Source: Candidatus Iainarchaeum sp. (GTDB lineage Archaea; Iainarchaeota; Iainarchaeia; Iainarchaeales; 0-14-0-20-34-12). From it: 32,000 nt of DNA. Below, piece after piece: positions 10,273 through 26,798 of the stretch. The notes beneath the pieces were generated by a model, which did no database searches, was not told where the DNA came from, and saw only the letters and a list, made by a program, of their open reading frames with translations. The position numbers and the translations under genes are program-made. Position 1 is the stretch's first letter; every line of letters begins with the position of its first letter. The stretch spans positions 1-32,000 of the forward strand of contig JAUSKK010000036.1 in assembly GCA_030649345.1 (NCBI GenBank). Direction: 5' to 3'.

Positions 10273-10426
10273 TAGAAATTTAAGAGGCAAGGCACTATTT
10301 TTAAAGCTTTTGAAAGGCTAGTATTGTATACTGGTTTTATAGTCTACTTGCCGAAGGCAATTCGGAGGTATCGGAACCGAAGGTTCTGATTTAGACAGTA
10401 ACCGATGATAATTTGGAGGTTAGAAT

Positions 10427-10786
10427 ATGAGTTCATTTGAAGTACCTAAAGAATTAATGGCCAAGCAATTGGAAGTTTTGGAAAAAATAGCTAAAGGCGG
10501 CGGAAAATTCAAAGCCGGAGTGAATGAAGTAACAAAAGCCATTGAACGCGAAAAAGCCAAACTTGTTTTCATTGCTTTAGACGTTGACCCCAAAGAAATT
10601 GTAATGCATTTGCCTTTGATTTGCAAAGAAAAAAAGATTCCGTATACTTTTGTGGAAAGCAAAAAAGAATTGGGTGAAAAAGCAGGAATTAAAGTTCCCA
10701 CCAGTGCTTTAGCTGTCATGGATGAAGGAAAAGAAAAAAAAGAAGTAACAGATTTAGCTAAAAAATTAGCTGAATTGCAGGTTTAA
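10427..10786 (+). CDS. rpl7ae: 50S ribosomal protein L7Ae (K-turn binding protein)
   Basis: GVNEVTKAIEREKAKLVFIALDVDPKEIVMHLPLICKEKKIPY is the L7Ae signature. A GGAGGT SD lies upstream. Confidence 0.9.
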   Translation: MSSFEVPKELMAKQLEVLEKIAKGGGKFKAGVNEVTKAIEREKAKLVFIALDVDPKEIVMHLPLICKEKKIPYTFVESKKELGEKAGIKVPTSALAVMDEGKEKKEVTDLAKKLAELQV

Positions 10787-10801
10787 AGGAAGTGAAATCG
10801 T

Positions 10802-11011
10802 ATGGATGAAAAAGGAACACCAGCTGAAGTGGTTGAAATCATTAAACGCACAGGCGTCCAAGGCGAAATCACTCAAGTTATGTTAAAAATTTTGGACGGT
10901 CCAGAAAAAGGACGTGTAAAGCGAAGAAATGTAAAAGGCTTAATTCAAAAAGGCGATGTCGTAATTCTGTTAAGCACAGAAAGAGAAGCAGCTGAAATTA
11001 AAGCCAGATAA
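10802..11011 (+). CDS. rps28e: 30S ribosomal protein S28e
   Basis: [28 protein letters not shown]...[10 protein letters not shown]. Confidence 0.9.
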
Positions 11012-11029
11012 AAAATTGAGGGATAAATT

Positions 11030-11296
11030 ATGAATAATTGTTCATTTTGTGGAACTAACATTCAACAAGGTACTGGAATTATTTTTGTAAAAAGAACCGG
11101 AAAACGTTTTGATTTCTGTTCACGAAAATGTGAAAAAAATTTAATGAAATTAAATCGAAATCCAAGAAATTTCAAATGGACCCAAGAATACTGGAAAGAA
11201 AAAGGATTCCAGCAAGAAAAAGCAGGAAAAACTGAAACAGCTAAAAAAGAAGAAACTACAGAAAAGAAAGCTGTGAAACGAAAAAGAAAAAAGTAA
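11030..11296 (+). CDS. rpl24e: 50S ribosomal protein L24e
   Basis: CSFCGTNIQQGTGIIFVKRTGKRFDFCSRKCEKN zinc-ribbon N-terminus and a lysine-rich tail. Confidence 0.9.
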   Translation: MNNCSFCGTNIQQGTGIIFVKRTGKRFDFCSRKCEKNLMKLNRNPRNFKWTQEYWKEKGFQQEKAGKTETAKKEETTEKKAVKRKRKK

Positions 11297-11421
11297 ACAA
11301 TTCTGTGGTGCTGCAAGCACAATAAAACAAAATGTTTTATGTGCATCAAAATCAGCAGATTTTGATTGCACCACGTTCGACCAACCGGAACCCCGGTTGA
11401 AACGAAAGCGAAAAAAGTAAA
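11274..11421 (+). repeat. 24-nt direct repeat of the L24e 3' end (11274-11297 / 11398-11421, 22/24) bracketing a 100-nt multi-hairpin insert
   Basis: Read directly: TGAAACGAAAAAGAAAAAAGTAAA versus TGAAACGAAAGCGAAAAAAGTAAA. The insert stems are given in the findings. Confidence 0.8.
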
Positions 11422-11483
11422 ATAATTTAGTGGCACTGGCGCAGCAATGCAACAGTGTCACATACTATCAATCCGGTGATATT

Positions 11484-11948
11484 TTGGAACGAACGTTAAT
11501 TATTGTAAAACCAGATGCAGTTCAACGAGGCTTGGTCGGAGAAATTGTAAAAAGATTTGAAGACAAAGGCTTGAAAATTGTAGCCATGAAATTAGAAGTA
11601 TTGGCTGAAGAAAAACTCAAAGAACATTATGCGCATCATTCCACAAAACCATTTTTTCCTGAATTGGTCAACTTTATGAAAAGTACACCTAGTGTATTAA
11701 TGGTCTTGGAAGGCACAGAATGTGTTCGAGTGATTCGACAAATGTTGGGTGCCACCAATGGAAGAGATGCAACTTCTGGAACTTTACGCGGAGATTATTC
11801 CATTAGCAATCAAAATAATTTAGTTCATGCCAGTGAAAGTTTGGAAGCAGCAGAAAAAGAAATTGCTCGCTTTTTCAAAAAAGAAGAAGTCATGAATTAC
11901 ACCAAAACTTTAACTGAATGGTTTTATGCCAGTAAAGAAAAAAATTAA
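11484..11948 (+). CDS. ndk: Nucleoside diphosphate kinase, probable TTG start
   Basis: (M)ERTLIIVKPDAVQRGLVGEIVKRFE matches the canonical NDK N-terminus, and NLVHASES contains the active-site His. The track ORF (11430) adds 18 aa that overlap a strong hairpin. GGTGAT lies at 11475-11480. Confidence 0.85.
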   Translation: MERTLIIVKPDAVQRGLVGEIVKRFEDKGLKIVAMKLEVLAEEKLKEHYAHHSTKPFFPELVNFMKSTPSVLMVLEGTECVRVIRQMLGATNGRDATSGTLRGDYSISNQNNLVHASESLEAAEKEIARFFKKEEVMNYTKTLTEWFYASKEKN

Positions 11949-11957
11949 GGGATTGTT

Positions 11958-12401
11958 TTGAACACTGCAGATTTGAAAGTATTTATTCGAAAAGTAAACG
12001 AACAAGCCATCTTGCCGCAGTATGCTCATGAAAGCGATGCCGGCATGGATTTGTATGCTTGTGAAGAAACAGTTATTTTACCCGGGCAATGGAAAATGGT
12101 CAGTACTGGAATTTCCATTGAAATGCCGCATGGCCTAGAAGCTCAAGTGCGGCCTAGATCTGGATTGGCAGCCAAGCATGGTTTAAGTGTATTGAATACT
12201 CCGGGAACCATTGATCCAGATTATCGCGGAGAAATTAAAGTAATATTAATTAATTTTGGAAGCCAAGAATACAAAGTTGAATTTGGACACAAAATTGCTC
12301 AAATGGTTTTCAACAAAATTGAAAAACCCAAAATTGAAACAGTAGACCAATTAAGCGAAACCCAGCGCGGAGAAAAAGGCTTTGGTTCTACTGGAAAATA
12401 A
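11958..12401 (+). CDS. dut: dUTP diphosphatase (trimeric Dut type), TTG start
   Basis: SDAGMDLYA, RPRSGLAAKHGL, GTIDPDYRGEI and a C-terminal RGEKGFGSTG motif. Confidence 0.85.
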   Translation: MNTADLKVFIRKVNEQAILPQYAHESDAGMDLYACEETVILPGQWKMVSTGISIEMPHGLEAQVRPRSGLAAKHGLSVLNTPGTIDPDYRGEIKVILINFGSQEYKVEFGHKIAQMVFNKIEKPKIETVDQLSETQRGEKGFGSTGK

Positions 12402-12506
12402 TATTGATTGCATACGGGTCAAGGCGCTGAGCCAACCAAAAGAAATATCCATTCAAAGTGCAGGATTACAGAATCCTAAAACTTTGAATAACTGTGTGTG
12501 AAAATT

Positions 12507-14252
12507 ATGATTCGACAACCGATTATTGTAGTCATGGGCCATATTGACCATGGAAAAACCAAATTATTGGACAGAATTCGCGGAACCACTATAGCTGAAA
12601 GAGAAGCTGGAGCGATTACGCAACATATTGGTGCTACTGAATTACCTGAAAATAAAATTCAAGCTATTTCTGGAAACTTATTAAAGCAATTTGGATTTCA
12701 ATTAGAAATTCCAGGCTTATTGTTTATTGATACGCCTGGGCATGATGCATTCACGAATTTAAGAAGACGCGGTGGAAGCATTGCCGATTTATCTATTTTA
12801 GTTGTAGACTGCATGCAAGGAATTCAACCGCAAACTTTGGAAGCCATTCAAATTTTGAAAACATTCAAAGTACCGTTTGTGGTAGCGTTTAATAAAATTG
12901 ACAAATTACAAAACTGGCAAAGCAAGACAGGTTCGTTTTTAGAAAATGAAAAAATTCAAACTACCCATGCCCAAGAATTATTGGATAAAAAAATCTATGA
13001 ATTGGTTGGAAGATTGTTTGAATTAGGATTTGAAGCAGAACGCTTTGATCGAATTCAAGATTTCCGAAAACAAATAGCTATTGTTCCTTTGTCGGCTGTG
13101 GTGGGAGAAGGAATTCCTGAATTGTTAATGATGCTGTCTGGTTTAAGTCAAAAGTTTTTGAAAAACAAATTGGAAATCGGAGAACAAGAAAAATGCAAAG
13201 GCACTGTCTTGGAAGTCAAAGAAGACAAAGGCCTAGGAACAACATTGGATGTAATTTTATACGAAGGATCTTTACGCGTAGGAGATATCATTGCTGTTGG
13301 AACCAAACAAGGAGTCACTGAAACCAAAATTCGTACTTTACTCAAACCCAAACCATTATCGGAAATACGGGATGAAAAAAATGTATTCAAATCAGTAGAA
13401 TCTGTAAGCGCGGCTTGCGGAGTAAAAATTTCCGCTCCAAACTTAGAAAATGTTTTAGCGGGTTCTCCAGTATTGGATGCCAGTGTGGAATCACGGCAAC
13501 AAATATTGGATGAAATTAAATCCATTAAAATTTCAACCGAAGATATTGGCTTAGTCATCAAAGCAGATACTTTAGGATCCTTGGAAGCATTGATTGGATT
13601 AATGAAAAACAATCAAATTCCAGTACGATCCGCAGATGTAGGAATGGTTACCAAAAAAGATGTCATGGAAGCTTTGGCTTCAAAAGAAAAAGATGTTTAC
13701 CATGGCTGTATTGTTGCATTCAATGTAGAAATTGATAAAACTGCAGAAGACGAAGCCAAAAAAAGAGAGATTCAATTATTTTCAGGAAAAGTAGTGTACA
13801 CCATTATTGATGAATATTCAAATTGGGTAAAAACTCAAAAAGATCAAATGAAAAAAAACAAGTCTACTTTCTTGATAAGTCCAGCAAAAATTGAAGTATT
13901 GCGAGGCTTTGTTTTTAGAAGATCCGATCCAGCCGTGGTTGGCGTAAAAGTATTGATTGGAAAAATTAAATCCAAAACAACATTGATTAATGAAAATACA
14001 ATGGTACGATTGCAGGGATTGCAGGAAGAAAAAAAGGCTGTTGAATCTGCAGAAAAAGGAAAAGAACTGGCAGCATCCTTAGAGAATGCAGTCATTGGCC
14101 GAAACTTGTTTGAAGGAGATATATTGTATACGTATATTCCAGAAAGCCAATTTGAAGAAATTCCAAAGTATTTGGAGCTAAATTCTGAAGAATTGGCCTT
14201 ACTGGAGGAAATAAAAAATGTTCAAATCAAACATAAAGAGAACGGAGGATAA
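12507..14252 (+). CDS. infB: Translation initiation factor aIF5B (IF-2 homologue)
   Basis: GHIDHGKTKLLD, DTPGH and NKID GTPase motifs; about 580 aa. GTG 12498 is an alternative start. Confidence 0.9.
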   Translation: MIRQPIIVVMGHIDHGKTKLLDRIRGTTIAEREAGAITQHIGATELPENKIQAISGNLLKQFGFQLEIPGLLFIDTPGHDAFTNLRRRGGSIADLSILVVDCMQGIQPQTLEAIQILKTFKVPFVVAFNKIDKLQNWQSKTGSFLENEKIQTTHAQELLDKKIYELVGRLFELGFEAERFDRIQDFRKQIAIVPLSAVVGEGIPELLMMLSGLSQKFLKNKLEIGEQEKCKGTVLEVKEDKGLGTTLDVILYEGSLRVGDIIAVGTKQGVTETKIRTLLKPKPLSEIRDEKNVFKSVESVSAACGVKISAPNLENVLAGSPVLDASVESRQQILDEIKSIKISTEDIGLVIKADTLGSLEALIGLMKNNQIPVRSADVGMVTKKDVMEALASKEKDVYHGCIVAFNVEIDKTAEDEAKKREIQLFSGKVVYTIIDEYSNWVKTQKDQMKKNKSTFLISPAKIEVLRGFVFRRSDPAVVGVKVLIGKIKSKTTLINENTMVRLQGLQEEKKAVESAEKGKELAASLENAVIGRNLFEGDILYTYIPESQFEEIPKYLELNSEELALLEEIKNVQIKHKENGG

Positions 14253-14255
14253 ATA

Positions 14256-14316
14256 AATGGTTCCAAAATTCGAAAGAATTTTGAAACTTTAAAAAACACG
14301 GAGGTTTTTTAATGGC
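14256..14316 (+). repeat. 61-nt module, copy A (84% identical to 24835-24895): inverted repeat + AAACTTTAAAAAA + G-rich box + TTTTTTAATG
   Basis: A by-eye alignment gives 51/61 identities. Inverted repeat CAAAATTC (14264-14271) / GAATTTTG (14276-14283). AATGG occurs at both ends (14256 and 14311). Confidence 0.8.
14288..14296 (+). promoter_or_regulatory. TATA-like TTTAAAAAA exactly 24 nt upstream of the S6e ATG
   Basis: The same 9-mer lies at the same 24-nt distance from the ATG at 17303 (spt4) and 24867 (dnaJ). Promoter function is not proven, because GGAGG between the box and the ATG could instead be an SD. Confidence 0.4.
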
Positions 14317-14734
14317 CGCGCCAAAATTAGATCAAAAAGTTGGAATGAATTTAGTAATCTCAGACCCAAAGACTGGAAACAGTTACAAAAAAGATACAGA
14401 ACAGCCTGTTTTTTTAAATAAAAAAGTTGGTGAAACTGTAGACTTAAGCACAGTTGGATTGCAAGGCTATAAAGCTTTGATTACCGGCGGAAGTGACAAA
14501 GATGGTTTTCCATTAAAGCCTACTTTGCCTGGAAGTGCAAGAAAAAAAGTATTGATTTCCCGAGGAGTTGGTTTACGACAAACCATTAAAGGCAGCCGGA
14601 GAAGAATTCGAGTCCGAGGAAATCTTATTGCAGATGACGTACGACAAGTGAATTTAAAAATCACAGAATATGGAACACCTACATTGGAAACCATTTTCCC
14701 AAAAGCACCCAAAGCAGAAGACCAAGCAAAATAG
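14312..14734 (+). CDS. rps6e: 30S ribosomal protein S6e
   Basis: NLVISDPKTGNSYKK...GGSDKDGFPLKP...RRRIRVRGN are S6e motifs. An internal ATG at 14345 is an alternative start. Confidence 0.9.
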   Translation: MAAPKLDQKVGMNLVISDPKTGNSYKKDTEQPVFLNKKVGETVDLSTVGLQGYKALITGGSDKDGFPLKPTLPGSARKKVLISRGVGLRQTIKGSRRRIRVRGNLIADDVRQVNLKITEYGTPTLETIFPKAPKAEDQAK

Positions 14735-14747
14735 TTTTTGCGGGTCA

Positions 14748-14767
14748 CAGAAAACCAAGGTTTTCTG
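14748..14767 (+). terminator. 8-bp hairpin after S6e
   Basis: CAGAAAAC-caag-GTTTTCTG. The left arm repeats 11/12 nt of the S6e 3' end (14715-14726). Confidence 0.35.
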
Positions 14768-14813
14768 AAGAAACAAAAAAAGAATAATAAAATAAATGGA
14801 TGTGAACTAACTC

Positions 14814-16037
14814 ATGGCTGGAAAAAAAGTAAAAACAGACAGCAGTGCACAATGCGTGCAAGCTGAAGTGAATATTGGTTTAGCCGGCCATGTAGATGCA
14901 GGAAAAACAACTTTAACTCAAGCATTGAGTGGAAAATGGACAGACACGCATAGTGAAGAATTAAAGCGCGGAATTTCAATACGATTGGGATATGCGGATA
15001 TTGGAATTTATAAATGCAGTAAATGCAAAGAATTTAATTATTCGAATACCAGTGAATGCCCACAGTGTAAATCTCCAGGTATTTTAGACCGCAAAGTTAG
15101 TTTTGTGGATGCGCCAGGGCATGAAACATTAATGACTACTATGTTAAGTGGAGCTGCACTTATGCAAGGCGCTTTGTTGGTAATTGCCGCCAATGAAACT
15201 TGCCCGCAAGCACAAACCATTGAACACTTGAATGCATTAATTATCAGCGGCATCGAGCAAGTCATTGTAGTGCAAAGCAAAGTAGATTTGGTCACCGAAG
15301 AACGAGCATTGGAAAGTCATAAAGAAATTAAAGAATTTTTGAAAGACACCCAATACAAAAACGCGCCCATTGTACCCATTGCAGCACATTTCAAAATCAA
15401 TATTGATATATTATTGGAAGAAATTCAAAAAAGTATTTCTTCGCCGAAATTTGATTCTACAAAACCATTGAAAATGTTTTGTGCACGATCTTTTGATATT
15501 AATAAACCAGGAACGCTTCCTTCAGAATTACATGGAAGTGTTTTAGGCGGAACCATTATTCAAGGAACCATCAAAAAAGGAGACACCATTGAATTAACTC
15601 CTTGGCTGGATGGAAAACAAATTCAAACCAAAGTTATTGAAATTCGAACCAGCGATGGAGTCTTAGAAGAAGCCAAGCCAGGCGGTTTAATTGCAATAGA
15701 AACTTTATTGGATCCAAGTTTAGCACAAAACGATCAGCTTAAAGGCCAAAACATTGGAGCTGTAGGAATATTCTCTGAACCTACCACAGTCTTGAAAATA
15801 GAAATGCATTTTTTGGATCGAGTTGTTGTCAGCAGTGCTAAACGAGTAGTGCAAGGAGATGACTTGGTTTTAACAGTTGGAACTGCAACTTTGTTGGGAA
15901 TTGTTTCCAGCGTAAAAGGAAATACTGTAGTTGTTGCTTTGAAGAAACCAGCCGTAGCTGAAAAAGAACAAAAACTTGCAGTCAGCAAACGAGACCAAAT
16001 GAAATGGAGATTAATTGCTTACGCAATCAATAAATAA
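14814..16037 (+). CDS. eif2g: Translation initiation factor aIF2 gamma subunit
   Basis: GHVDAGKTTL, the zinc-ribbon insert CSKCKE...CPQCKS, DAPGH and SKVD; 407 aa. Confidence 0.9.
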   Translation: MAGKKVKTDSSAQCVQAEVNIGLAGHVDAGKTTLTQALSGKWTDTHSEELKRGISIRLGYADIGIYKCSKCKEFNYSNTSECPQCKSPGILDRKVSFVDAPGHETLMTTMLSGAALMQGALLVIAANETCPQAQTIEHLNALIISGIEQVIVVQSKVDLVTEERALESHKEIKEFLKDTQYKNAPIVPIAAHFKINIDILLEEIQKSISSPKFDSTKPLKMFCARSFDINKPGTLPSELHGSVLGGTIIQGTIKKGDTIELTPWLDGKQIQTKVIEIRTSDGVLEEAKPGGLIAIETLLDPSLAQNDQLKGQNIGAVGIFSEPTTVLKIEMHFLDRVVVSSAKRVVQGDDLVLTVGTATLLGIVSSVKGNTVVVALKKPAVAEKEQKLAVSKRDQMKWRLIAYAINK

Positions 16038-16130
16038 TCAAAACTATCGAGGCAAAGCCGAAGATAGTTTAAAGTACCGCCGGCTTTCCGGCGAAACGGA
16101 GATTAATTGCTTACGCAATCAATAAATAAT
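16001..16130 (+). repeat. 38-nt direct repeat of the aIF2-gamma 3' end (16001-16038 / 16093-16130, 37/38) bracketing a 54-nt two-hairpin insert
   Basis: GAAA[T/C]GGAGATTAATTGCTTACGCAATCAATAAATAAT occurs twice with a 92-nt period. Confidence 0.85.
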
Positions 16131-16610
16131 ATGCAATCAATCAATAAAAAAATGAATATTAAAAATGAAAAAAAATTAAACAGTGCTGCTGAAGTGCAAC
16201 GAAAGCAGCACGTGCTACCAACCCGCACGCGGGTTGCAATTGACACAAATATGTTGTTAAGTGTCAGTCAATTAAAATTGGATATTTTTCAAGAAGTAGT
16301 CAACGAATTTGGAGAACAAAATTCTGAAATTGCAATCCCAGATAGGGTATTAAATGAATTAAAAAAATTGGCAGAAATTGAAAAAAACAAAGATGCCATT
16401 TTAGCTCAAGCCTGGTTAAACCAGAAAAAATTTAAAGTTTTGAAAGCCCAAAAGGCCGATAATGCAGATAAAGCCCTTTTAGAGCTTGCAAAACAAGGGT
16501 TTATCATAGCTACCAATGATAAAGTCTTACGAAAAAGTATAAAAAACGTTAATGGCAAGAGTATTTATATTAGAAAACGAAAAGTACTAGACTTTTCAGA
16601 AACATTCTAA
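16131..16610 (+). CDS. PIN-domain protein (conserved archaeal Fcf1/Utp24-like neighbour of aIF2-gamma and rpoE')
   Basis: VAIDTNMLL...IIATNDKVLRK are acidic PIN motifs. The track start, TTG 16107, lies inside the duplicated aIF2-gamma end. ATG 16131 or 16152 is more plausible. Confidence 0.75.
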   Translation: MQSINKKMNIKNEKKLNSAAEVQRKQHVLPTRTRVAIDTNMLLSVSQLKLDIFQEVVNEFGEQNSEIAIPDRVLNELKKLAEIEKNKDAILAQAWLNQKKFKVLKAQKADNADKALLELAKQGFIIATNDKVLRKSIKNVNGKSIYIRKRKVLDFSETF

Positions 16611-16640
16611 TTATTTAACAATTATTGAGGTGTGAAATTC

Positions 16641-17258: not shown

Positions 17259-17262
17259 GGTG

Positions 17263-17330
17263 AATTTTAAATGAATTTAAAATTTAAAAAAAATTTTAAA
17301 ACTTTAAAAAACCGGGGGTTTTTTAAATGA
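17263..17330 (+). repeat. 10-nt direct repeat TTTTAAATGA (17265-17274 / 17321-17330) around a 46-nt AT-rich promoter-like insert at the spt4 start
   Basis: Exact repeat with a 56-nt period. Inverted repeat AATTTTAAA (17263-17271) / TTTAAAATT (17276-17284). AAACTTTAAAAAA at 17299-17311. Confidence 0.5.
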
Positions 17331-17524
17331 CGGTAAAAGGAAAAGCTTGTAGAAATTGTAGAAAAGTAATTGAAGAAGGAAGTAATTGCCCCAACTGCAA
17401 TAGCACAGCTTTCACAACTTTTTGGAAAGGATATGTAATCATTGTAAAACCAGAACAATCGGAAATTGCCAAACGCATGGGCATTAAAACAACCGGAATG
17501 CATGCTTTGCGATTAAGCAGATAA
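17327..17524 (+). CDS. spt4: Transcription elongation factor Spt4 (RpoE'')
   Basis: 65 aa with a CRNC...CPNC zinc ribbon, in the conserved position after rpoE'. Confidence 0.85.
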   Translation: MTVKGKACRNCRKVIEEGSNCPNCNSTAFTTFWKGYVIIVKPEQSEIAKRMGIKTTGMHALRLSR

Positions 17525-17539
17525 TTTTGAGGTGAAAAT

Positions 17540-17881: not shown

Positions 17882-17901
17882 AAAAAATTAGGTGAACACG
17901 T

Positions 17902-18102: not shown

Positions 18103-18109
18103 GTTTATT

Positions 18110-18658: not shown

Positions 18659-18659
18659 T

Positions 18660-20254: not shown

Positions 20255-20264
20255 ACTCGCCAAA

Positions 20265-20924
20265 TTATGCAGAATCAAAAGAATAAAAAGCACTATCTTT
20301 ATTTGTAAATTCATCTAAATCTGAAATTAATTCTGCACTATTTTTGTAATTACTGGCATTAATCAACAAGTGAAAGCCATGCTTTTTTTCTTTCATTTTG
20401 AAAAGGTTTTCCAAGTAAACTATATTGTCCTTTTTATCAGAAGATACTGCAACCTTAAAGGAACAATTTAGACTTGTAGCTAGAAAAGAATATTCAATTG
20501 CACGAATAATAAAATGTGGCCGCATATATGTACCGTTTTCAACACTGGCTTGAATGAATTCATTCGGATTTTTTAAAAGCAAACAATAAGTGTGATTATT
20601 CATTTTAGCAATCAACACAATATTAATCCGTTTTAGTTCAGTGCTTATACCTTGCGGGTTTGCAAAAACAAGTTTGTCTAAATATACTGTAATAATGGGT
20701 GCTATTTGCTGAATGGATTTTCGAGTTACAAAAAGATAAAAAAACACGAATGAAAATAATACCAACAAAGGCAAAACTGCAAGAAACGGTACTACAGTAG
20801 AAGTCTTAGCACTTGGAATAAAAGCCAAGGCAATGTAAAAAACTATTGCAATAAAACTAAAGACAGTAAAAACATCGCGTACAAAAAAACTTGGATAATA
20901 GATCTTGAGATCTTGTGAGTGCAT
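20265..20924 (-). CDS. Membrane protein: two N-terminal TM helices plus a ~140-aa soluble domain, function unknown
   Basis: Hydrophobic segments VFTVFSFIAIVFYIALAFI and VVPFLAVLPLLVLFSFVFFYLFV. It is the last gene of the minus-strand operon. Confidence 0.6.
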   Translation of the reverse strand: MHSQDLKIYYPSFFVRDVFTVFSFIAIVFYIALAFIPSAKTSTVVPFLAVLPLLVLFSFVFFYLFVTRKSIQQIAPIITVYLDKLVFANPQGISTELKRINIVLIAKMNNHTYCLLLKNPNEFIQASVENGTYMRPHFIIRAIEYSFLATSLNCSFKVAVSSDKKDNIVYLENLFKMKEKKHGFHLLINASNYKNSAELISDLDEFTNKDSAFYSFDSA

Positions 20925-20944
20925 ACAGATCTAAATACTTAGAA

Positions 20945-21472
20945 TTATTTTTCTGAACGAAAGCTAGCAGTATATTGATAGAGTTTTAAAAAAACTGCCA
21001 AAATTACAATAAAGATTCCAACATTCAAAGCATACGAGTAGGGCTGAACGATTCCATAATTTTCCCAGTTAATAAAAGTTAATTCTGGATCCAAATAAGC
21101 TGCAATCGCGTAAGCTATAAAAAAAGCAAACACAATTTCAATTATAATCAAAGCCAAGACTCGGGGATCGTTTTTTGCATTTTTTAATTTTTGCTGCACA
21201 GCATCTTTCAATGTTTTGCCGGCCAAAACTTGGATATCATAGGCTTGGGTTTGTTTTTTTTTCAAAACAAAATACACGGCAATAAATGTGAACAAAGAAA
21301 GGCCGGCTAAAAATAAATATTCTGGCGAAAAATTAAATGAAACTGTCCGCTCAAAGACATTGATTTGAATAATTTGAATTAAAGAATAAATAAATGAAAC
21401 CAGCAAAGCAAACTCCATGAGCACAATAGCAATAACTTTTTTGTTTGCTTGAATGGTTTCAATTGCTTGCAT
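20945..21472 (-). CDS. Four-TM membrane protein, function unknown
   Basis: Four hydrophobic segments with a central amphipathic, charged loop. It lies 32 nt downstream of the HTH gene. Confidence 0.6.
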   Translation of the reverse strand: MQAIETIQANKKVIAIVLMEFALLVSFIYSLIQIIQINVFERTVSFNFSPEYLFLAGLSLFTFIAVYFVLKKKQTQAYDIQVLAGKTLKDAVQQKLKNAKNDPRVLALIIIEIVFAFFIAYAIAAYLDPELTFINWENYGIVQPYSYALNVGIFIVILAVFLKLYQYTASFRSEK

Positions 21473-21504
21473 TGTTTAAACTTAGGAAACCGGAATATAA
21501 AAAA

Positions 21505-21936
21505 CTAGTCTTCGATTTCCAAGCCAAATTTTTGATCCAATTCTCGTGCAGTTTCTTCCATTCTTCTAAAAATTAAGTTCACTTCTTCTTGAATTTCTTT
21601 AATCGTACGAGACATACTTCGCGAACGCGCTAAATAAAATCTTCCTTCTCGAACAATTAAGCCAGAAAGCAAAAGCTTATTCAAATGATTAATCACAGCA
21701 CCGCGAGACATATTTACTTTATCCGCAATTTCTGGACAAGTCAAAAGCTTGCCTTGCTCAGTAGCTTGAACAAGTACTCGAAAAATAGCAAAAGCCAACT
21801 TGTCTTTGTCAATGGGTTCAAATAAACCAAAACTTTGACAAATCCAACCCAGCTCTTGTTCTACATCATGCTGAAAAGGCTGTTCTATACGTTTAATAAC
21901 TATTTTAAACGAAGTACGGCGCACAGTCATATACAA
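21505..21936 (-). CDS. Winged-helix transcriptional regulator (ArsR/MarR-like fold), divergent from grpE
   Basis: LTCPEIADKVNMSRGAVINHLNKLLLSGLIVREGRFYLA is a clear HTH plus wing. It has an acidic C-terminal helix. Confidence 0.65.
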   Translation of the reverse strand: MYMTVRRTSFKIVIKRIEQPFQHDVEQELGWICQSFGLFEPIDKDKLAFAIFRVLVQATEQGKLLTCPEIADKVNMSRGAVINHLNKLLLSGLIVREGRFYLARSRSMSRTIKEIQEEVNLIFRRMEETARELDQKFGLEIED

Positions 21937-21968
21937 GTACTCTTAATGGAATAAATTTAAAAACATTT

Positions 21969-22002
21969 TGATTAAACAGTTTGATAAATGATTAAAGAGT
22001 TT
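21969..22002. promoter_or_regulatory. Candidate operator: 14-nt direct repeat TGATTAAA[C/G]AGTTT spaced 20 nt, with a third TGATAAA half-site between
   Basis: 21969-21982 and 21989-22002 are identical at 13/14 positions. They lie in the 86-nt divergent spacer between the wHTH gene and grpE. Confidence 0.45.
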
Positions 22003-22022
22003 AGACAAATAAGGTAGTTTTT

Positions 22023-22589
22023 ATGACTTTTGAAACAAAAAGCAATGAAAAAGAAGGAATGGAAAGCCCAACACCTGAAAATAACCGTCCAAGCGAAAAT
22101 AATGAAGAATTCAATGCATTAATGACTAAAAAACAGGCTGAGATGCAGGATTATATCAATGATTTAAAGCGGTTACAGGCCGATTTTGAGAACTATCGAA
22201 AGAGGGTAGAACGCGAGCGAACAGAATATGTAAAGCATGCCAATTTTGGATTTTTGCGAGAAATATTGGCTTTATTGGATTCAGTTCAATCAGCAGTTCA
22301 TAAACTGGAAAATGAAAAAGAATTCAATCAAGGAAAAGCCGTGCATGGTTTGCAGTTATTGGAAAAACAATTTAAAGAATTTTTAAAAAAACACGGAGTG
22401 CATGAAATCCAAGCACAAAATTGTAAATGTGATCCTGCAGTACATGAAGTTGTATTGCAAGGAACAGATAATTCAAAACCAGATGAAATGATTTTGGAAG
22501 AATTGCAAAAAGGATATCTATTGCATGACAAAGTTTTACGGTCAGCAAAAGTAAAAGTCAACAAATTAGATAGTAAAATTGAAAAATAA
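22023..22589 (+). CDS. grpE: Nucleotide exchange factor GrpE
   Basis: LKRLQADFENYRKRVERE is the hallmark motif; C-terminal beta domain GYLLHDKVLRSAKVKV. Confidence 0.9.
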   Translation: MTFETKSNEKEGMESPTPENNRPSENNEEFNALMTKKQAEMQDYINDLKRLQADFENYRKRVERERTEYVKHANFGFLREILALLDSVQSAVHKLENEKEFNQGKAVHGLQLLEKQFKEFLKKHGVHEIQAQNCKCDPAVHEVVLQGTDNSKPDEMILEELQKGYLLHDKVLRSAKVKVNKLDSKIEK

Positions 22590-22636
22590 TTATAAAATTT
22601 GAAAAATAAAAGTATGATTTTTGAAGGTGGTATGAA

Positions 22637-24523
22637 ATGAGTAAAGTAATTGGAATCGATTTAGGAACCAGTAATTCAGCAGCTGCAGTCTTGGAAGCAG
22701 GAAAACCAAAAATTATTCCAAGCGCAGAAGGAACTTCTTTATACGGAAAAGCATTTCCAAGTGTTGTGGCATTCACAAAAGATGACCAAGTTTTGGTGGG
22801 TGAACCGGCACGCAGACAAGCTGTCAGTAATCCAGATAAAACAATTATGGCAGCCAAGCGAAAAATGGGAACTACTTTCAAATACAAGATTGGCTCGAAA
22901 GAATTTACGCCTCAACAAATTAGTGCATTTATTTTACAGAAAATTAAAAAAGACGCAGAAGAATTTTTAGGCGAAAAAGTAGAAAAAGCTGTAATCACTG
23001 TGCCAGCTTATTTTGATGACAATCAAAGACAAGCAACCAAAGATGCAGGAGAAATTGCAGGCTTGGAAGTTATTCGAATTATTAATGAACCCACAGCTGC
23101 TGCTTTAGCCTATGGCTTAGATAAAAGCAATCAAGACATGAAAATTTTAGTATTCGATTTCGGCGGCGGAACATTGGATGTAACTGTAATGGAATTAGGC
23201 CATGGAGTCTTTGAAGTCAAATCAACCAGCGGAGACACTCAATTGGGCGGCACAGACATGGATAAAATTTTAGTGGATTATTTGGTGGCAGAATTCAAAA
23301 AAGAACAAGCTGTTGATTTAAGCAAAGACAGTGTAGCTATGCAGAGATTACGAGAAGCTGCAGAAAAAGCCAAAATTGAATTAAGTACAGTTTTGGATAC
23401 ACAAATTAATTTACCGTACATTACAGCTACTCCGGAAGGCCCGAAACATTTGGCCCTGAGTTTAACAAGATCAAAATTAGAACAATTGGTCGAGCCCTTA
23501 ATTCATAGATGCGAAAAACCAGTCCAGCAAGCTTTGGCGGATGCCAAAGTATCCCCGGGAGATGTAGCTAAAATTATTTTAGTCGGCGGACCAACCCGAA
23601 TGCCTGCAGTACAAAAGTTTGTGGAAAAAATTACAGGAGCCAAACCAGAACGAGGCATTGACCCAATGGAATGTGTAGCTATGGGTGCAGCCATTCAAGC
23701 CGGAGTTTTAGCTGGAGAAGTTAAAGATGTTTTATTATTGGACGTAACACCCCTAAGTTTAGGAATTGAAACCTTGGGTGGAGTGTTTACTCATTTAATT
23801 GAACGCAATACAACCATTCCAACCAAAAAAACTCAAATATTTAGCACAGCTGCAGACAACCAAAATGCAGTAGATATTCATATCCTGCAAGGAGAAAGAC
23901 CTATGGCAGTAGACAACAAAAGTTTGGGCAGATTTATTTTAGATGGAATTCCTCCAGCACCTCGCGGTGTTCCACAAGTTGAAGTCATGTACGATATTGA
24001 TGCCAACGGAATTTTGGATGTTAAAGCCAAAGATTTAGGCACAGGCAAAGAAAAAAGCATCAAAATTGTTTCTCCGCAAAAATTGGATAAAGAAGAAATT
24101 GAGCGAATGAAGCAGGAAGCGGAAAAGTTTGCAGAAGCGGATCAAAAGAAAAAAGAAGAGATTGAAACTTTGAATATGGCAGACAACACAGTTTATGGGA
24201 CTGAAAAGGTGTTGAAAGAATTGAGCGGGAAAATTTCTGCAGAACAAGAAACAGAAATTAAAGAAAAAAATGAAACATTAAGAAAATTAGTAAACGAGCC
24301 AACCAAAGATGTTGCAAAAATTAAAACAGCTTTAGATGACTTGAATGCATTCGTGCAAAAAATCAGTACAGAAATGTATCAAAAAGCCGGAGAACAATAC
24401 CAGCAACAAAATCAAGGAGAACAAGGAAATCCCGGACAAGAAGAAGAACACAAGCACAAAAAGAAAAACAAAGACGGAAAAGTGGTTGACGCGGAGTTTA
24501 AGGAAGACGAAAGCAAACAATAG
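22637..24523 (+). CDS. dnaK: Chaperone DnaK (Hsp70)
   Basis: [23 protein letters not shown] and [10 protein letters not shown]; 628 aa. Confidence 0.95.
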
Positions 24524-24659
24524 TGCTGAACGCAGTGAAGCACTACGACCTACCAACCGCGCGATTAAAACGCAGCGTTTTAATGCGCATTTAAACAAAA
24601 GTTTAAATCGCGTCCGCGGTTGACGCGGAGTTTAAGGAAGACGAGAGCAAACAATAGTG
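24484..24659 (+). repeat. 42-nt direct repeat of the dnaK 3' end (24484-24525 / 24618-24659, 41/42) bracketing a 92-nt GC-rich multi-hairpin insert
   Basis: GGTTGACGCGGAGTTTAAGGAAGACGA[A/G]AGCAAACAATAGTG occurs twice with a 134-nt period. Confidence 0.9.
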
Positions 24660-24688
24660 GAAAAGATAGAACAAATGGAGTTGGTCAT

Positions 24689-24817
24689 ATGAATCCTGAA
24701 GTGAAAGCAAAAAAAGTTGAACCTGTTTTGAAGAATCAACCGAAAGCAGAAGATGTAGTTATTCTTGGCCAAGCAAAAAAATCAAGAGATTACTTGAATA
24801 ACTTTATGGCAGCATAA
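24689..24817 (+). CDS. Hypothetical 42-aa protein between dnaK and dnaJ
   Basis: ATG preceded by GGAG 9 nt upstream. Sequence MNPEVKAKKVEPVLKNQPKAEDVVILGQAKKSRDYLNNFMAA, with no recognisable motif. Confidence 0.3.
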   Translation: MNPEVKAKKVEPVLKNQPKAEDVVILGQAKKSRDYLNNFMAA

Positions 24818-24834
24818 TTAATCAGGTAGAAATC

Positions 24835-24895
24835 AATGGTTCCAAAATTCTTTTGAATTTTGAAACTTTAAAAAATAAAGGAATTTTTTAATGGC
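24835..24895 (+). repeat. 61-nt module, copy B (see 14256-14316) directly upstream of and including the dnaJ start
   Basis: Inverted repeat CAAAATTC (24843-24850) / GAATTTTG (24855-24862). TTTAAAAAA at 24867-24875. AATGG at 24835 and 24890. Confidence 0.8.
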
Positions 24896-26015
24896 TGAAA
24901 AAGATTATTATGAAGTTTTAGGAGTTTCAAGGAATGCATCGCATGAAGAAATTAAAGCAGCATTCAAGAAACTCGCAAAACAATTTCATCCAGACTTAAA
25001 CAAAGACCATAAAGCTGAAGACAAATTTAAAGAAATTAATCAAGCGTATTCTGTTTTAGGCAATCCTGAAAAAAAACAAAAATACGATCAGTATGGTTCA
25101 AGTGCATTTGAAGGACAAGGATTCCAAGGCTTTCAAGGAGCAGACTTTGATTTCGGAGACTTTGGATTCGAAGACTTATTTGGAAGCATATTTGGACAAC
25201 AATTTAGAAACACAAATTCTAGAAGAACTCCAGCAGGCCCCAGAAAGGGAGCGGATTTACAATACAGTTTAGAAATTGAATTCGAAGAAGCAGTCAATGG
25301 AGTCACCAAAGACATTGAATTCGAACACATGGAACAATGTACAACCTGTAAAGGCATCGGCGGATCTGGAACAACCAAATGTTCTTCATGCAATGGAAAA
25401 GGAGTGGTTACCAGACAACAAAGAACAGCTTTTGGAATATTTCAGAGCAGTACAACTTGTTCCAAGTGCCGCGGCCAAGGAGAATCAGTAAAAGATTCAT
25501 GCAAGCAATGCAATGGAACAGGTCATATTGAAAAACTAAAAAATGTAGAAGTCAAAATTCCAGCAGGAATTGACAATGGTTATACTTTACGATTGCAAGG
25601 ATTGGGAAATGCTGGAACTCAAGGCGGAAACTCCGGAGACTTATATGTTTCTATTTTTGTAAAAGCCAGCAAAATATTCAAACGCGACCAAAACGATGTA
25701 TTCATTGAATTACCCATTAGTTTTACTGAAGCTGCTCTAGGATGCGAAATTGAAGTTCCAACATTAAAAGGAACTGCAGAATTAAAGATACCGCAAGGAA
25801 CACAAACTGGAACAATTTTCCGAATGAAAGGACAAGGCATGAAACATTTAAACAAAAACGAACACGGAGACGAATACGTAAAAGTCAATATTGTGGTTCC
25901 AGAAAAACTAAGCACCAAACAGAAAAAAAGATTGGAAGAATTCAAAAAAGAAGAAGAAAATGTACGCATTCAAAAAGGATTCTTTCACAAAATAAAGGAT
26001 AAGTTTGTAAGCTAA
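24891..26015 (+). CDS. dnaJ: Co-chaperone DnaJ (type I)
   Basis: [15 protein letters not shown], a G/F region and four CxxCxGxG zinc motifs. Confidence 0.95.
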
Positions 26016-26080
26016 TTTTTAGCAAATCTTACTTGTAAGAAAAGCTTATTAACCTGTTTTGTTCTAATTAGTAGATTGAT

Positions 26081-26335
26081 ATGAAAGTAATTGTGGAAAC
26101 CACCAAGATGTCCACCAAAGGACAAGTTATTATTCCGAAAGATGCACGCACATTTATGGAACTTGAAAAAAACACGGTTTTTTCAGTTTTAGCTTTGGAT
26201 CAAAACACGCTTATTTTAAAAAAATTAGATAAAGAAAAATTGCTAAGAGAGTTTGAAAATATTCGAGCACGCGTCAAGCATAAACTCTCTGAAAAGGGAG
26301 TGGATGCTATTGTTCACAAAGCACGCAAAGGTTAG
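26081..26335 (+). CDS. AbrB/SpoVT-family antitoxin
   Basis: MSTKGQVIIPKDAR is the swapped-hairpin AbrB motif. The protein is small and lies directly upstream of the PIN gene, overlapping it. Confidence 0.75.
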   Translation: MKVIVETTKMSTKGQVIIPKDARTFMELEKNTVFSVLALDQNTLILKKLDKEKLLREFENIRARVKHKLSEKGVDAIVHKARKG

Positions 26336-26750
26336 AGTTGTTCTAGACACCAACATTGTTGTTTCGGCTTTGATCGAAAAACGCGGTTATCCAGCGGAAA
26401 TTTTTAGAAAACTTATTTCTGAAGAAATTGAATGTTTTACCAGCCAAGAAATACTGGACGAAATTGAAGATGTATTTAAAAGAACAGAAATTGTCAGCCG
26501 AACTTTACAGGCCGATCGGGAATCCATATTAACAAATTTCAAGATTTATGCGCAATGGATTTCAATCAAAACCAAAGTAAAAACAGTACTGGAAGATTCA
26601 GATGATGATAAATTCATTGAATGCGCTTTGGACGCCAAAGCAGATTTCATTGTCAGCGGAGATCGACATTTGCTTAAACTAAAGGAATTCAAAGGAATAA
26701 AAATTATTAAAGCTAAGGAATTTATAGACACAATAAGCGGCTGTTTGTAA
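26304..26750 (+). CDS. PIN-domain toxin (VapC-like)
   Basis: VVLDTNIVVSAL...DDDKFIECALDAKADFIVSGDRHLL. The track ORF starts at 26253; ATG 26304 is preceded by GGGAG and gives a 32-nt overlap with the antitoxin. Confidence 0.75.
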   Translation: MLLFTKHAKVRVVLDTNIVVSALIEKRGYPAEIFRKLISEEIECFTSQEILDEIEDVFKRTEIVSRTLQADRESILTNFKIYAQWISIKTKVKTVLEDSDDDKFIECALDAKADFIVSGDRHLLKLKEFKGIKIIKAKEFIDTISGCL

Positions 26751-26798
26751 GCTAATTTCGCTGGTTTTTTAATTCCTTTACTTTAATTCTTATTGTAT

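Follow-up and report, generated by a model that had tools for sequence, protein, structure and literature searches.

Several spacers between essential genes in the window (the whole stretch of 32,000 nucleotides that was analysed) seem to be products of hairpin-forming inserts and of one toxin-antitoxin (TA) cassette, with 16-42 bases of the gene junction duplicated, and the analysis confirmed this in part. The DNA comes from a DPANN archaeon (Diapherotrites/Iainarchaeia) with a genome G+C of 0.35. Four events display the succession of junction copy, foreign insert and junction copy:

11274..11297 (+): L24e junction copy 1, the last 20 nt of L24e (assigned by Pfam), the TAA stop and 1 nt, in frame
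11298..11397 (+): L24e insert, 100 nt, perfect Watson-Crick hairpins forming a three-way junction, with a G+C hairpin at the end (CAACCGG..CCGGTTG) that extends into copy 2
11398..11421 (+): L24e junction copy 2, displaced and non-coding
16001..16038 (+): aIF2-gamma junction copy 1, the last 34 nt of aIF2-gamma, the stop and 1 nt
16039..16092 (+): aIF2-gamma insert, 54 nt, a hairpin at 16041-16070 and then a second one, CGCCGG..CCGGCG
16093..16130 (+): aIF2-gamma junction copy 2, ending directly before the ATG of the PIN_9 gene (16131)
24484..24525 (+): dnaK junction copy 1, the last 37 nt of dnaK (Pfam HSP70), the TAG stop and 2 nt
24526..24617 (+): dnaK insert, 92 nt, made of hairpins
24618..24659 (+): dnaK junction copy 2, with 1 synonymous difference from copy 1
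26003..26018 (+): dnaJ-end junction copy 1, the last 10 nt of dnaJ, the stop and 3 nt (GTTTGTAAGCTAATTT)
26019..26742 (+): TA cargo, 724 nt, VapBC-like, with an AbrB/MazE-like antitoxin and a PIN-domain toxin
26743..26758 (+): dnaJ-end junction copy 2, an exact copy in which the toxin ORF has its last codons and its stop

The duplications measure 16 nt (dnaJ end, exact), 24 nt (L24e, 2 mismatches, both synonymous in the L24e frame), 38 nt (aIF2-gamma, 1 mismatch, TGG in copy 1 and CGG in copy 2) and 42 nt (dnaK, 1 mismatch), which bears out the earlier view that such variable repeats are unlike a classical transposase with a fixed stagger. All four span the last codons of the gene and end 1-3 nt past its stop codon and, from the reading of the frames, three of the four differences between copies are synonymous. 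Direct repeats within 1 kb were scored as length minus 3 x mismatches. Five of them scored at least 16 versus a mean of 0.26 expected from 200 third-order Markov shuffles of the window, and three scored at least 18 versus 0.01. When the 18 window spacers of at least 45 nt were compared individually with dinucleotide shuffles, the observed score was reached by 0/300 shuffles at each of the L24e, aIF2-gamma and dnaK junctions.

The earlier note had listed repeats at nine junctions, to be judged against shuffled controls. All nine are present in the DNA, and four (L24e, aIF2-gamma, dnaK and dnaJ end) are real and far beyond chance, the first three exceeding those controls, but the other five (S6e, dnaJ start, spt4, dut/aIF5B and L7Ae) did not hold. 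Its statement that most spacers are bracketed in this way was too broad: 3 of the 18 spacers pass the individual comparison, and there are four events including the TA cassette. Insertion with duplication describes those four events but not most spacers; the weaker claim, that the structured spacers of the block are derived insertions, holds better.

Regarding the derived state, spacer lengths were compared with medians obtained from 444 junctions in relatives. The L24e-NDK spacer has 187 nt versus a median of 7 nt, the aIF2-gamma-PIN spacer 93 nt versus an overlap, the dut-aIF5B spacer 96 nt versus 6, the aIF5B-S6e spacer 59 nt versus 0 and the rpoE-spt4 spacer 68 nt versus 5.5. Genes overlap throughout in L164, the closest relative compared at the DNA level (64% amino acid identity in aIF2-gamma). 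Since the genes at the event junctions abut or overlap in relatives that share the gene order, these spacers were gained in this lineage. Judging from the relatives, the genes of the L7Ae-S28e-L24e-NDK-dut-aIF5B-S6e-aIF2gamma-PIN-rpoE-spt4 and grpE-dnaK-dnaJ-ValRS blocks would have abutted or overlapped in the ancestors. The TA genes (antitoxin at 26081-26335, a weak MazE match; toxin at about 26307-26750, PIN_3, 3.7e-25) were found in no relative examined, and in one of these (L027) ValRS directly follows dnaJ, without the cassette. An 84% relative (P0002) has, on its gene map, a 102-nt gap after aIF2-gamma similar to that of the window; if this is the same event, the near-identity of the aIF2-gamma copies (37/38) needs selection or gene conversion, not youth.

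The inserts have a G+C of 0.43-0.50 (0.43 in L24e) versus 0.35 in the genome, and their folding is much stronger than that of shuffles (z = -3.6 to -7.0, the latter in L24e). Among the 18 spacers of the window, only those flagged here are structured. The three window inserts show no significant similarity to each other (best pair L24e/dnaK, z = 2.7), and the L24e insert has no match in Rfam.

Homologous inserts were found in two other genomes, L013 (L24e-NDK junction) and L089 (NDK-dut junction), with z = 10 and 0/300 shuffles. They share defined 5' and 3' ends (...GGCGWGACGGC), and each is flanked by its own, different 29-nt junction duplication; that of L013 ends before reaching the ancestral stop codon, a new stop being provided by its insert. 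The earlier note had not foreseen this non-arbitrary character of the inserted DNA, with homologous hairpin elements of defined ends standing at different junctions in different genomes. The hairpin at 16041-16070 of the aIF2-gamma insert follows the layout stem, GA, short G+C hairpin, GAA, stem. The pattern NNNNN-ATCGAG-N(4-16)-GAAGAT with 4-5 of 5 complementary flanking positions occurs just three times in about 2 Mb (L013, L089 and the aIF2-gamma insert), always on the sense strand and within repeat-flanked inserts. When the window copy is compared with that of L013, four of the five variable outer pairs in the basal stem differ at both bases and still pair. The aIF2-gamma hairpin scores 42.8 bits with a covariance model built from sequences that include its own, and this model yielded a single additional candidate (25.4 bits, E = 0.028), which lies in the leader of L7Ae in L023. 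The hairpin family has only three or four known members, and among the window inserts only that of aIF2-gamma is tied to L013 and L089, through the 30-nt hairpin. The repeat-insert-repeat anatomy is also present in the unrelated assemblies L013, L089, L007, L092 and L160.

Furthermore, three gene-start spacers are copies of one module of about 55 nt, which the earlier note had not anticipated either (0/1000 shuffles reach the alignment score):

14256..14315 (+): gene-start module copy 1, before S6e, bracketed by AATGG; orphan GGAGG and ATG upstream at 14244-14259
24835..24894 (+): second copy of the gene-start module, preceding dnaJ and sharing about 85% identity with that at S6e; orphan AGGT and ATG at 24824-24838
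17265..17330 (+): third copy of the gene-start module, preceding spt4 and more diverged, with TTTTAAATGA on both sides; orphan GGTGA and ATG at 17259-17273

In the S6e copy, the palindrome GGTTCCAAAATTC-N6-GAATTTTGAAAC and an A6..T6 hairpin whose loop holds the ribosome-binding site are followed by the ATG. Upstream of every module stands an orphan ATG at a suitable distance from a ribosome-binding motif (background ATG rate 6.6%, p about 3e-4). This separate module may have reached the S6e, dnaJ and spt4 start codons by spreading, the identity at its flanks covering only 5-10 nt, and its insertion would have stranded the old ribosome-binding site and ATG upstream. Taken as duplications, the flanking repeats are at chance level: the 10-nt TTTTAAATGA at spt4 has p = 0.28, and the 5-nt AATGG at the S6e and dnaJ starts lies below the best chance-level repeat of its own spacers. 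That these gene-start rows rest on 5-10-nt repeats is a point against the main reading.

Three further structured stretches were examined:

12402..12506 (+): dut-aIF5B structured spacer, folding z = -4.3; about 6 nt in relatives
11422..11483 (+): second structured spacer before NDK, hairpin GTGGCACTG..CAGTGTCAC
10351..10420 (+): L7Ae leader, outside the phenomenon, hairpin AUCGGAACC-GAA-GGUUCUGAU and downstream CCGAUGA, both conserved in L020

The degenerate repeat reported at dut/aIF5B is not significant (p = 0.27), and the spacer is probably an old insertion. No flanking repeat was detectable around the spacer before NDK, whose domain begins at residue 20 of a GTG ORF, and its hairpin is possibly an older insertion with its repeats lost. 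Both older events may have lost their flanking repeats since. At L7Ae, a 19-nt repeat (15/19, 10351-10369 / 10402-10420) has a nominal p = 0.005, but the intervening hairpin matches positions 5088-5116 of the distant relative L020 (28/29 identical) and is therefore an old leader element rather than a recent insertion.

On balance, it seems fairly probable that small non-autonomous hairpin elements insert with a long, variable target duplication at gene boundaries. Discrete DNA pieces, namely non-coding perfect-hairpin elements of about 40-115 nt and one VapBC-like cassette of 724 nt, would have been inserted there, each duplicating 16-42 nt of its target. Copy 1 would retain the last codons and stop of the upstream gene and copy 2 the signals of the downstream gene lying in the old junction; with the parts of both genes preserved, both neighbours would therefore survive and a new structured spacer would result. 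The survivorship put forward earlier accounts for events sitting at junctions, but it leaves unexplained an insertion point 1-3 nt past the stop codon even at places that offered 30-60 nt of spacer. Probably the two strands would be nicked at positions 16-42 nt from each other, the element joined in and the gaps filled, as in the general scheme behind any target duplication, although the stagger is unusually long and loose here. Identification of genes and domains in the window gave no transposase, integrase, reverse transcriptase or Cas1, and the elements would be mobilised in trans. Other points stand against the main reading: the window holds no such enzyme gene, its three inserts are not significantly alike and the hairpin family is small; the elements lack terminal inverted repeats, four duplication lengths in one genome are hard to square with one enzyme, and no same-species empty site is among the relatives compared, the nearest at the DNA level being 64% identical in aIF2-gamma.

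Template switching during replication, by fork stalling or microhomology-driven copying, is a possible but rather doubtful alternative. A strand would leave the gene end, copy a hairpin-rich donor and return 16-42 nt upstream, re-copying the junction; a dedicated enzyme is unnecessary because hairpins stall forks and promote switching. The variable lengths within one genome and the window without a mobility gene agree with it, and the inserts, consisting almost entirely of perfect Watson-Crick palindromes folding on both strands, look like DNA-level products. Moreover, in each insert the hairpin at the 3' end pairs with the bases that open copy 2 (e.g. TCCGC followed across the boundary by GGTTGACGCGGA, the last 5 nt of the dnaK insert pairing with CGCGGA within copy 2), several duplications start with (T)GAAA/TTGA, and AATGG is identical on both sides of the module at both S6e and dnaJ, as microhomology switching would give. 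However, these microhomologies are inseparable from the repeats themselves, a search of the window and of 2 Mb from relatives turned up no donor for any of the window inserts, and the ends and the 29-nt duplication length shared by L013 and L089 at unrelated targets fit a discrete element better.

The inserts would more improbably be remnants of site-specific integrative elements that carried the 3' end of their target gene, attL being the intact gene and attR the displaced fragment, with internal deletions leaving 54-724 nt. Blocks of att identity terminate at the 3' ends of tRNA genes, much as the window repeats end just past the stop; 16-42 nt is a typical att core length, the targets are conserved housekeeping genes, the copies differ mostly synonymously, and a TA module is typical cargo. 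But none of the inserts contains or adjoins an integrase gene, and three independent elements must each have lost all but 54-100 nt and yet kept both att copies. The L013 and L089 repeats differ and match their own targets, which makes the target, not the element, the source of the repeat; the L013 duplication stopping before the ancestral stop, with a new one given by the insert, also argues against it.

Tandem duplication of the gene end with its downstream spacer, the inner copy then diverging or being replaced, without any foreign insertion (a pathway discussed by Lim et al. 2012), is very improbable. By eye, the L24e insert start and the sequence after copy 2 both show a GTGG..CCAC-type hairpin followed by CAA(C/T)CCGG, a partial third copy (TATGCAATCAATCAATAAA) lies downstream of aIF2-gamma copy 2, and pure tandem duplications exist in relatives such as L122. 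Nevertheless, local alignment of the inserts with their flanks (130-160 nt downstream of copy 2, and upstream) was equalled or exceeded by 322/500, 499/500 and 170/500 shuffles; the inserts are thus dissimilar to their own flanks and no simple tandem duplication is involved. Their composition also differs from the surroundings, and this pathway accounts neither for homologous inserts at different junctions nor for the TA cassette.

The least credible explanation is a metagenome-assembly artefact with strain variants stitched at shared k-mers into a false repeat-insert-repeat: the source is a metagenome-assembled genome and same-run Logan contigs break at or beside repeats (L001 ends at 16035, L163 starts exactly at 24618, where dnaK copy 2 begins, and L162 ends at 11401), but the copies differ by 1-2 bases and hence represent different read sequences, a true 33-nt exact repeat at k = 31 gives precisely the break at 16035, the independent k = 31 assembly (Logan, SRR13727527) gives base for base the L24e insert (L162, identical through 11401) and the left dnaJ/TA junction (contigs 100% identical across the dnaJ end into the cassette), and the unrelated assemblies named above have the same anatomy.

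Returning to insertion of hairpin elements, the idea that such events had not been described before stands only in part. Insertion with long, variable target duplication, often across start or stop sites and without mobility genes, is known in bacteria (PMC2853133), but for short DNAs it was said in 2012 to be 'not yet' recognised (PMC3457768). Among known kinds, this bacterial "insertion with long target duplication" comes closest to the window inserts, which are short and archaeal; for inserts this short, or in archaea, the event is apparently new.

The window has a G+C content of 35% and its 32 kb are nearly all coding, on the + strand. Pfam confirmed GluRS, L7Ae, S28e, L24e, NDK, dUTPase, aIF5B, S6e, aIF2-gamma, a PIN_9 protein, RpoE/Rpb7, Spt4, S24e and S27ae and, further along, GrpE, DnaK, DnaJ, a PIN-domain toxin and ValRS, with the ribosomal proteins and RNA polymerase subunits in the left part; each gene name given in the earlier note was backed in this way. 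No transposase, integrase, reverse transcriptase or Cas protein was found by the Pfam search of the window genes. Some further features were recorded:

3217-3337 (+), Rfam tRNA match of 42 bits, whose span of 121 nt indicates a probable intron; ARAGORN reported zero tRNAs in the whole window
5455-5471 (S2 gene) and 6071-6087 (TrmB-like gene), an exact 17-nt direct repeat, ATTTTAGCTCAAGAATT, with copies 616 nt apart; chance would give about 0.26 of the kind per window
6515-8557 (+), ORF of 680 residues between the TrmB-like regulator and GluRS, with no Pfam match at E <= 0.1
24689-24817 (+), 42-codon ORF between dnaK and dnaJ (MNPEVKAKKVEPVLKNQPKAEDVVILGQAKKSRDYLNNFMAA), with its own ribosome-binding site and no Pfam match

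An identical aIF2-gamma protein is present in one NCBI 'Candidatus Diapherotrites' MAG and otherwise only in Logan contigs of the run SRR13727527. In the genome and metagenome collections, the relatives that come closest are Iainarchaeia and Micrarchaeota MAGs of 47-62% identity, and the protein database adds two more, at 84% (P0002) and 64% (L164). Concerning same-species empty sites, exact-protein look-ups led to one sample only, SRR13727527, and the genome and metagenome scans to sequences of at most 62% identity. On the P0002 contig (ENA ERZ27297570; aIF2-gamma 84% identical), about 102 nt lie between aIF2-gamma and the next gene, and 139 nt precede aIF2-gamma.

All nine direct repeats that the earlier note had described at gene junctions are present where it placed them. 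An unbiased scan of the whole window found ten direct repeats of at least 14 nt and no more than 1 kb apart, including the following four pairs, each of which reproduces the 3' end of its own upstream gene:

End of L24e, 24 nt with 2 mismatches, around a 100-nt insert
End of aIF2-gamma, 38 nt with 1 mismatch, around a 54-nt insert
End of dnaK, 42 nt with 1 mismatch, around a 92-nt insert
End of dnaJ, 16 nt, exact, around the 724-nt insert with the toxin-antitoxin genes

When repeats were scored as length minus three times the number of mismatches, five reached a score of at least 16 and three a score of at least 18, versus 0.26 and 0.01 per window in third-order Markov shuffles. The window has about 4.7 times the density of such strong short-range repeats seen in the relatives' loci, a conservative figure because the count includes coding repeats. 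In a per-spacer test against dinucleotide shuffles, in which the 18 spacers of at least 45 nt were taken together with 45 nt of the upstream gene, the L24e, aIF2-gamma and dnaK junctions alone stood out (0 of 300 shuffles each), so that the claim of repeats bracketing most spacers is overstated. In the same test the 10-mer repeat at spt4 gave p = 0.28 and the AATGG pentamers were weaker than the best chance repeat of their own spacers, and the dut/aIF5B repeat gave p = 0.27 in a gapped test. Four of the nine proposed duplications are solid, three are individually at chance level, the L7Ae one is something else, and one is unsupported. A count of synonymous versus non-synonymous differences between the repeat copies was dropped, as the numbers were too few to use.

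The expanded spacers are the derived state. The gene order L7Ae-S28e-L24e-NDK-dut-aIF5B-S6e-aIF2gamma-PIN-rpoE-spt4 is retained in dozens of relatives, in which 444 junctions were measured, with the following median spacers:

L24e-NDK, 7 nt in the relatives versus 187 in the window
dut-aIF5B, 6 nt versus 96
aIF5B-S6e, 0 nt versus 59
aIF2gamma-PIN, an overlap versus 93 nt
rpoE-spt4, 5.5 nt versus 68

In L164, the closest relative with DNA, the genes of the block abut or overlap throughout, and in another relative (L027) ValRS directly follows dnaJ. The toxin-antitoxin genes and the 42-codon ORF between dnaK and dnaJ were in no relative examined. At the places matching the window's inserts, the relatives of at most 64% amino acid identity have compact or overlapping junctions, although the repeat itself is not alignable at such distance. 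Furthermore, folding of all 18 spacers separated two classes, one A+T-rich, unstructured and of promoter type, the other G+C-richer and strongly structured (z = -3 to -7), and the second set is identical to the expanded junctions.

The three short inserts are non-coding, 54-100 nt long and of 43-50% G+C, and consist of nested hairpins with perfect Watson-Crick stems in which either strand folds. Each terminates in a G+C hairpin whose 3' arm extends into the first bases of the second junction copy. The insert ends are not complementary, for example CAATTCTG...CCCCGGT and GAAGAAATG...GACGGCTA, the hairpins being internal, and mutual similarity among the three is not significant. In the 724-nt insert the only genes are those of an AbrB/MazE-like antitoxin and a PIN toxin, a VapBC-like pair, and the toxin ORF takes its last codons and stop from the second junction copy. 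Rfam 15, applied to the window at E <= 1 and to the inserts and the L089, L020 and L123 regions of relatives at E <= 1-10, returned the tRNA at 3217-3337 as the sole match of the whole window and no family for the inserts or those three regions. Readings of the hairpins as hammerhead, K-turn or bulge-helix-bulge intron were rejected by hand, as the Watson-Crick register does not fit. In a donor search with blastn-short, which covered the window and some 2 Mb of relatives, the inserts matched only themselves and chance 12-18-mers. Aligned to the sequence after copy 2 or before copy 1, the inserts did no better than shuffles, and this dissimilarity to their own flanks argues against simple tandem duplication.

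The search for further cases at the expanded junctions of relatives, and on other DPANN contigs, gave these:

L013, L24e-NDK junction, 86-nt insert in an exact 29-nt repeat
L089, NDK-dut junction, 113-nt insert in a 29-nt repeat with 2 mismatches
L007, 41-nt insert in a 19-nt repeat
L092, 4376-4475, DPANN contig, 22-nt gene-start duplication with ribosome-binding site and start codon
L160, 1461-1602, DPANN contig, 38-nt gene-start duplication with ribosome-binding site and start codon
L141, 20651-20763, DPANN contig, 22-nt duplication after a stop

The repeats of the last three each bracket a hairpin-forming insert of 56-69 nt. The L013 and L089 inserts are homologous over their full length (z = 10) and share 5' A-rich ends with stop codons and 3' ends in ...GGCGWGACGGC. 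The two elements stand at different junctions, and the repeats around them differ in keeping with the respective targets, which shows a discrete element whose repeat is generated from the target. The hairpin at the centre of both, with the order stem, GA, short G+C hairpin, GAA, closing stem, is also found in the aIF2-gamma insert of the window, where four of the five variable outer base pairs of the basal stem are changed on both sides relative to L013 with pairing kept. A regular expression for this hairpin with complementary flanks found only these three inserts in about 2 Mb, always on the sense strand. The 3' ends of six of seven inserts read CGGC, CGGT, CCGC or CGGCT(A). As for a viral origin, two IMG/VR scans gave 0 matches to the L013/L089 core and, for the hairpin core of the window, one 20-mer match in a high-G+C coding region with no flanking complementarity, judged to be chance.

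A covariance model of the hairpin (R1), run over all loci, gave two additions: L023, with a candidate in its L7Ae leader (E = 0.028), and L123, where the match is doubtful (E = 0.24). In the latter, the R1-like hairpin (GUGCCACCGAGCC..GCGAGUGUGGCAC) is at the start of a 470-nt G+C-rich non-coding region (2427-2896). Arrays of repeated hairpins were also seen in relatives, at L065 3393-3707, L034 12255-12960 and L054 5376-6185, the first with 32-nt units at 52-58-nt intervals directly 3' of aIF2-gamma. These could be either CRISPR-like or tandem mobile-element arrays.

Regarding the gene starts, the S6e and dnaJ leader spacers are copies of one module of about 55-60 nt, about 85% identical, and the spt4 spacer is a third, more diverged copy. 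Its parts are a palindrome, GGTTCCAAAATTC-N6-GAATTTTGAAAC, a hairpin of the form A6...T6 whose loop holds the ribosome-binding site, and the ATG. Upstream of every copy stands a stranded ATG, itself 6-8 nt downstream of a ribosome-binding motif:

14244-14259, stranded ribosome-binding site and ATG before S6e
17259-17273, the same before spt4
24824-24838, the same before dnaJ

These ATGs lie a few bases past the stop of the previous gene, which is the compact arrangement of the relatives. Such a motif accompanies 6.6% of the ATGs in the window, and its presence at three of three module copies gives p ~3e-4. The three cases are probably insertions immediately after the old start codon, on account of the module homology and the orphan start sites and not of the 5-10-nt repeats. 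A longer hidden duplication, from the ribosome-binding site through the ATG, was rejected, since at none of the loci did the old region resemble its own new region more than it did the new regions elsewhere.

In the L7Ae region, a 19-nt repeat with 15 matches reaches a nominal p = 0.005. Between its copies there is a hairpin, AUCGGAACC-GAA-GGUUCUGAU, followed by CCGAUGA (window 10364-10420), and both are kept at the equivalent place in a distant relative, L020 (28/29 identical at 5088-5116; region 5088-5180), with an aIF2-gamma 52% identical. The earlier note had read this row as an insertion; the conserved hairpin instead makes it an old leader element of the L7Ae operon, plausibly an autoregulatory binding site for L7Ae itself. 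Other spacer features were as follows:

14748-14768, perfect 9-bp palindrome CAGAAAACC-AA-GGTTTTCTG just past the S6e stop, within a 79-nt spacer absent from the earlier list; no flanking repeat of it was found
21937-22022, divergent spacer between an ArsR/MarR-type HTH gene and grpE, with 14-nt repeats TGATTAAACAGTTT / TGATTAAAGAGTTT 20 nt apart (p = 0.047), which look like putative operator sites for a heat-shock regulator

The repeat-insert-repeat anatomy, the derived spacers and a discrete, homologous element between target-derived repeats are what is to be explained. The repeats are long and variable (16, 24, 38 and 42 nt in the window; 19, 29 and 29 nt in relatives), and copy 1 ends 1-3 nt past the upstream stop codon in all four events of the window. 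Survivorship, by which only junction-duplicating insertions would leave both neighbours functional, was offered in the earlier note as one of three possible reasons for the duplications, but alone it cannot explain this position of the copy-1 end; at three of the four events, 30-60 nt of spacer had been available. The pattern probably arose through insertion at a target cut with a long and loosely set stagger, the gaps then being filled in; the elements would be non-autonomous and mobilised in trans.

Template switching during replication, at hairpins, is the main rival. It accommodates the variable repeat lengths, the palindromic make-up of the inserts and the pairing of insert ends with the repeat, but less easily the defined ends of the elements and the equal length, 29 nt, of the L013 and L089 repeats. 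If the inserts were instead remnants of integrative elements, with att duplication at gene 3' ends, the tie of the repeats to stop codons would be explained, but no integrase gene is in or beside any insert, and the repeats are target-derived and not carried by the element as attP would be, as the homologous L013 and L089 inserts with different repeats indicate. An assembly artefact is unlikely, because there are differences between the repeat copies, two of the junctions recur in an independent k = 31 assembly and the same anatomy is found in unrelated assemblies.

Among the independent k = 31 contigs of the same run, L162 ends at 11401 and L163 begins exactly at 24618, each at the boundary between an insert and its copy 2, and no 31-mers are common to both copies at these boundaries. 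Alleles without the insert, or additional copies of the element, may thus be present alongside, but this is no more than a hint, and the contig ends were set aside as evidence for a presence/absence polymorphism, since contigs are short everywhere in this run (L166 ends mid-dnaK).

A more far-reaching reading would make these sequences a new class of hairpin-built, orientation-specific archaeal miniature mobile elements with defined ends (3' ...CGGC) and no terminal inverted repeats, integrated next to stop and start codons with 16-42-nt duplications by a novel integrase of very long stagger or an RNA-mediated target-primed route. DPANN genomes, in which genes otherwise abut, would chiefly owe their intergenic spacers and new intercistronic RNA structures to them. 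Taken jointly, these propositions are speculative and we lean against their all being correct. The genomes of DPANN archaea are among the most compact of any cell. The insertions described here would, if confirmed, show one concrete way for non-coding DNA to be acquired by them: gene boundaries receive small structured elements and an addiction cassette, and the long target duplication spares both neighbours. Overlapping, translationally coupled genes would become genes parted by structured RNA, with altered operon expression and raw material for regulatory leaders, and unstable repeat-flanked hairpins would remain, of which precise loss is possible.

Several known systems can be compared. In MITEs, the ends are inverted repeats and the parent transposase dictates a short duplication of fixed length (2-10 bp). 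Like MITEs, REP, Correia and RPE sequences, the present elements are short, non-coding, structured, presumably non-autonomous intergenic DNA, perhaps with related copies at unrelated sites, and such small repeats can also provide stops, starts and other signals. Nevertheless, the elements here are not MITEs, as they lack terminal inverted repeats and their duplications are long and variable (16-42 nt); their copy number is low, as far as visible. To our knowledge, no integrase chemistry other than that of Cas1-Cas2 spacer integration (including off-target 'neo-CRISPR' events) and casposons is well understood to duplicate about 24-40 bp around a short insert. A CRISPR system sets its duplication length with a molecular ruler and takes up unrelated sequences of about 30-40 nt, and casposons target gene 3' ends with a 14-15 bp duplication and terminal inverted repeats. 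The repeat-insert-repeat unit is alike, but the duplications of 16-42 nt have no fixed length, as Cas1-type integration would demand, the inserts of 41-724 nt come in families and the window has no cas genes. Long variable target duplications are also known from the IS1634/IS1549 group (IS4 family). For IS1630, target duplications of 19-26 bp are cited in PMC2853133. One transposase can yield variable duplications in these cases, from about 20 bp to hundreds; however, they are autonomous elements of Mycoplasma and Mycobacterium with a transposase gene and terminal repeats, none of which is in the window.

The closest system is insertion with long target duplication. It was described for bacterial restriction-modification genes, where start or stop sites are often spanned, without mobility genes and with the mechanism left open, and no archaeal case passed that screen (PMC2853133); in 2012 it was 'not yet' recognised for short DNAs (PMC3457768). 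The bacterial cases have kilobase-sized gene cargo and repeats usually >30 bp, up to hundreds (Furuta et al. 2010, PMC2853133; Lim et al. 2012, PMC3457768). In both settings, direct repeats of tens of bases surround foreign DNA (there, with a single copy at the empty site), the repeat length differs from event to event, the insert lacks transposase and integrase, the repeats often cover translation starts or stops so that the neighbours survive, and the cargo can be of addiction type (restriction-modification there, a VapBC-like pair here). The present case has the testable defining features of this process, with the relatives compared at no more than 64% amino acid identity. The suggestion in the earlier note that such events had not been described does not hold for the bacterial kind (PMC2853133), but the host, the insert size and the family nature differ: here most inserts are non-coding hairpin elements of 41-113 nt that appear to form a sequence family, the host is a DPANN archaeon, and several lie within 15 kb. 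A process whose mechanism has been open since 2000 would then reach into archaea and take in very short inserts with defined ends, a far more tractable substrate for finding the responsible enzyme or replication error.
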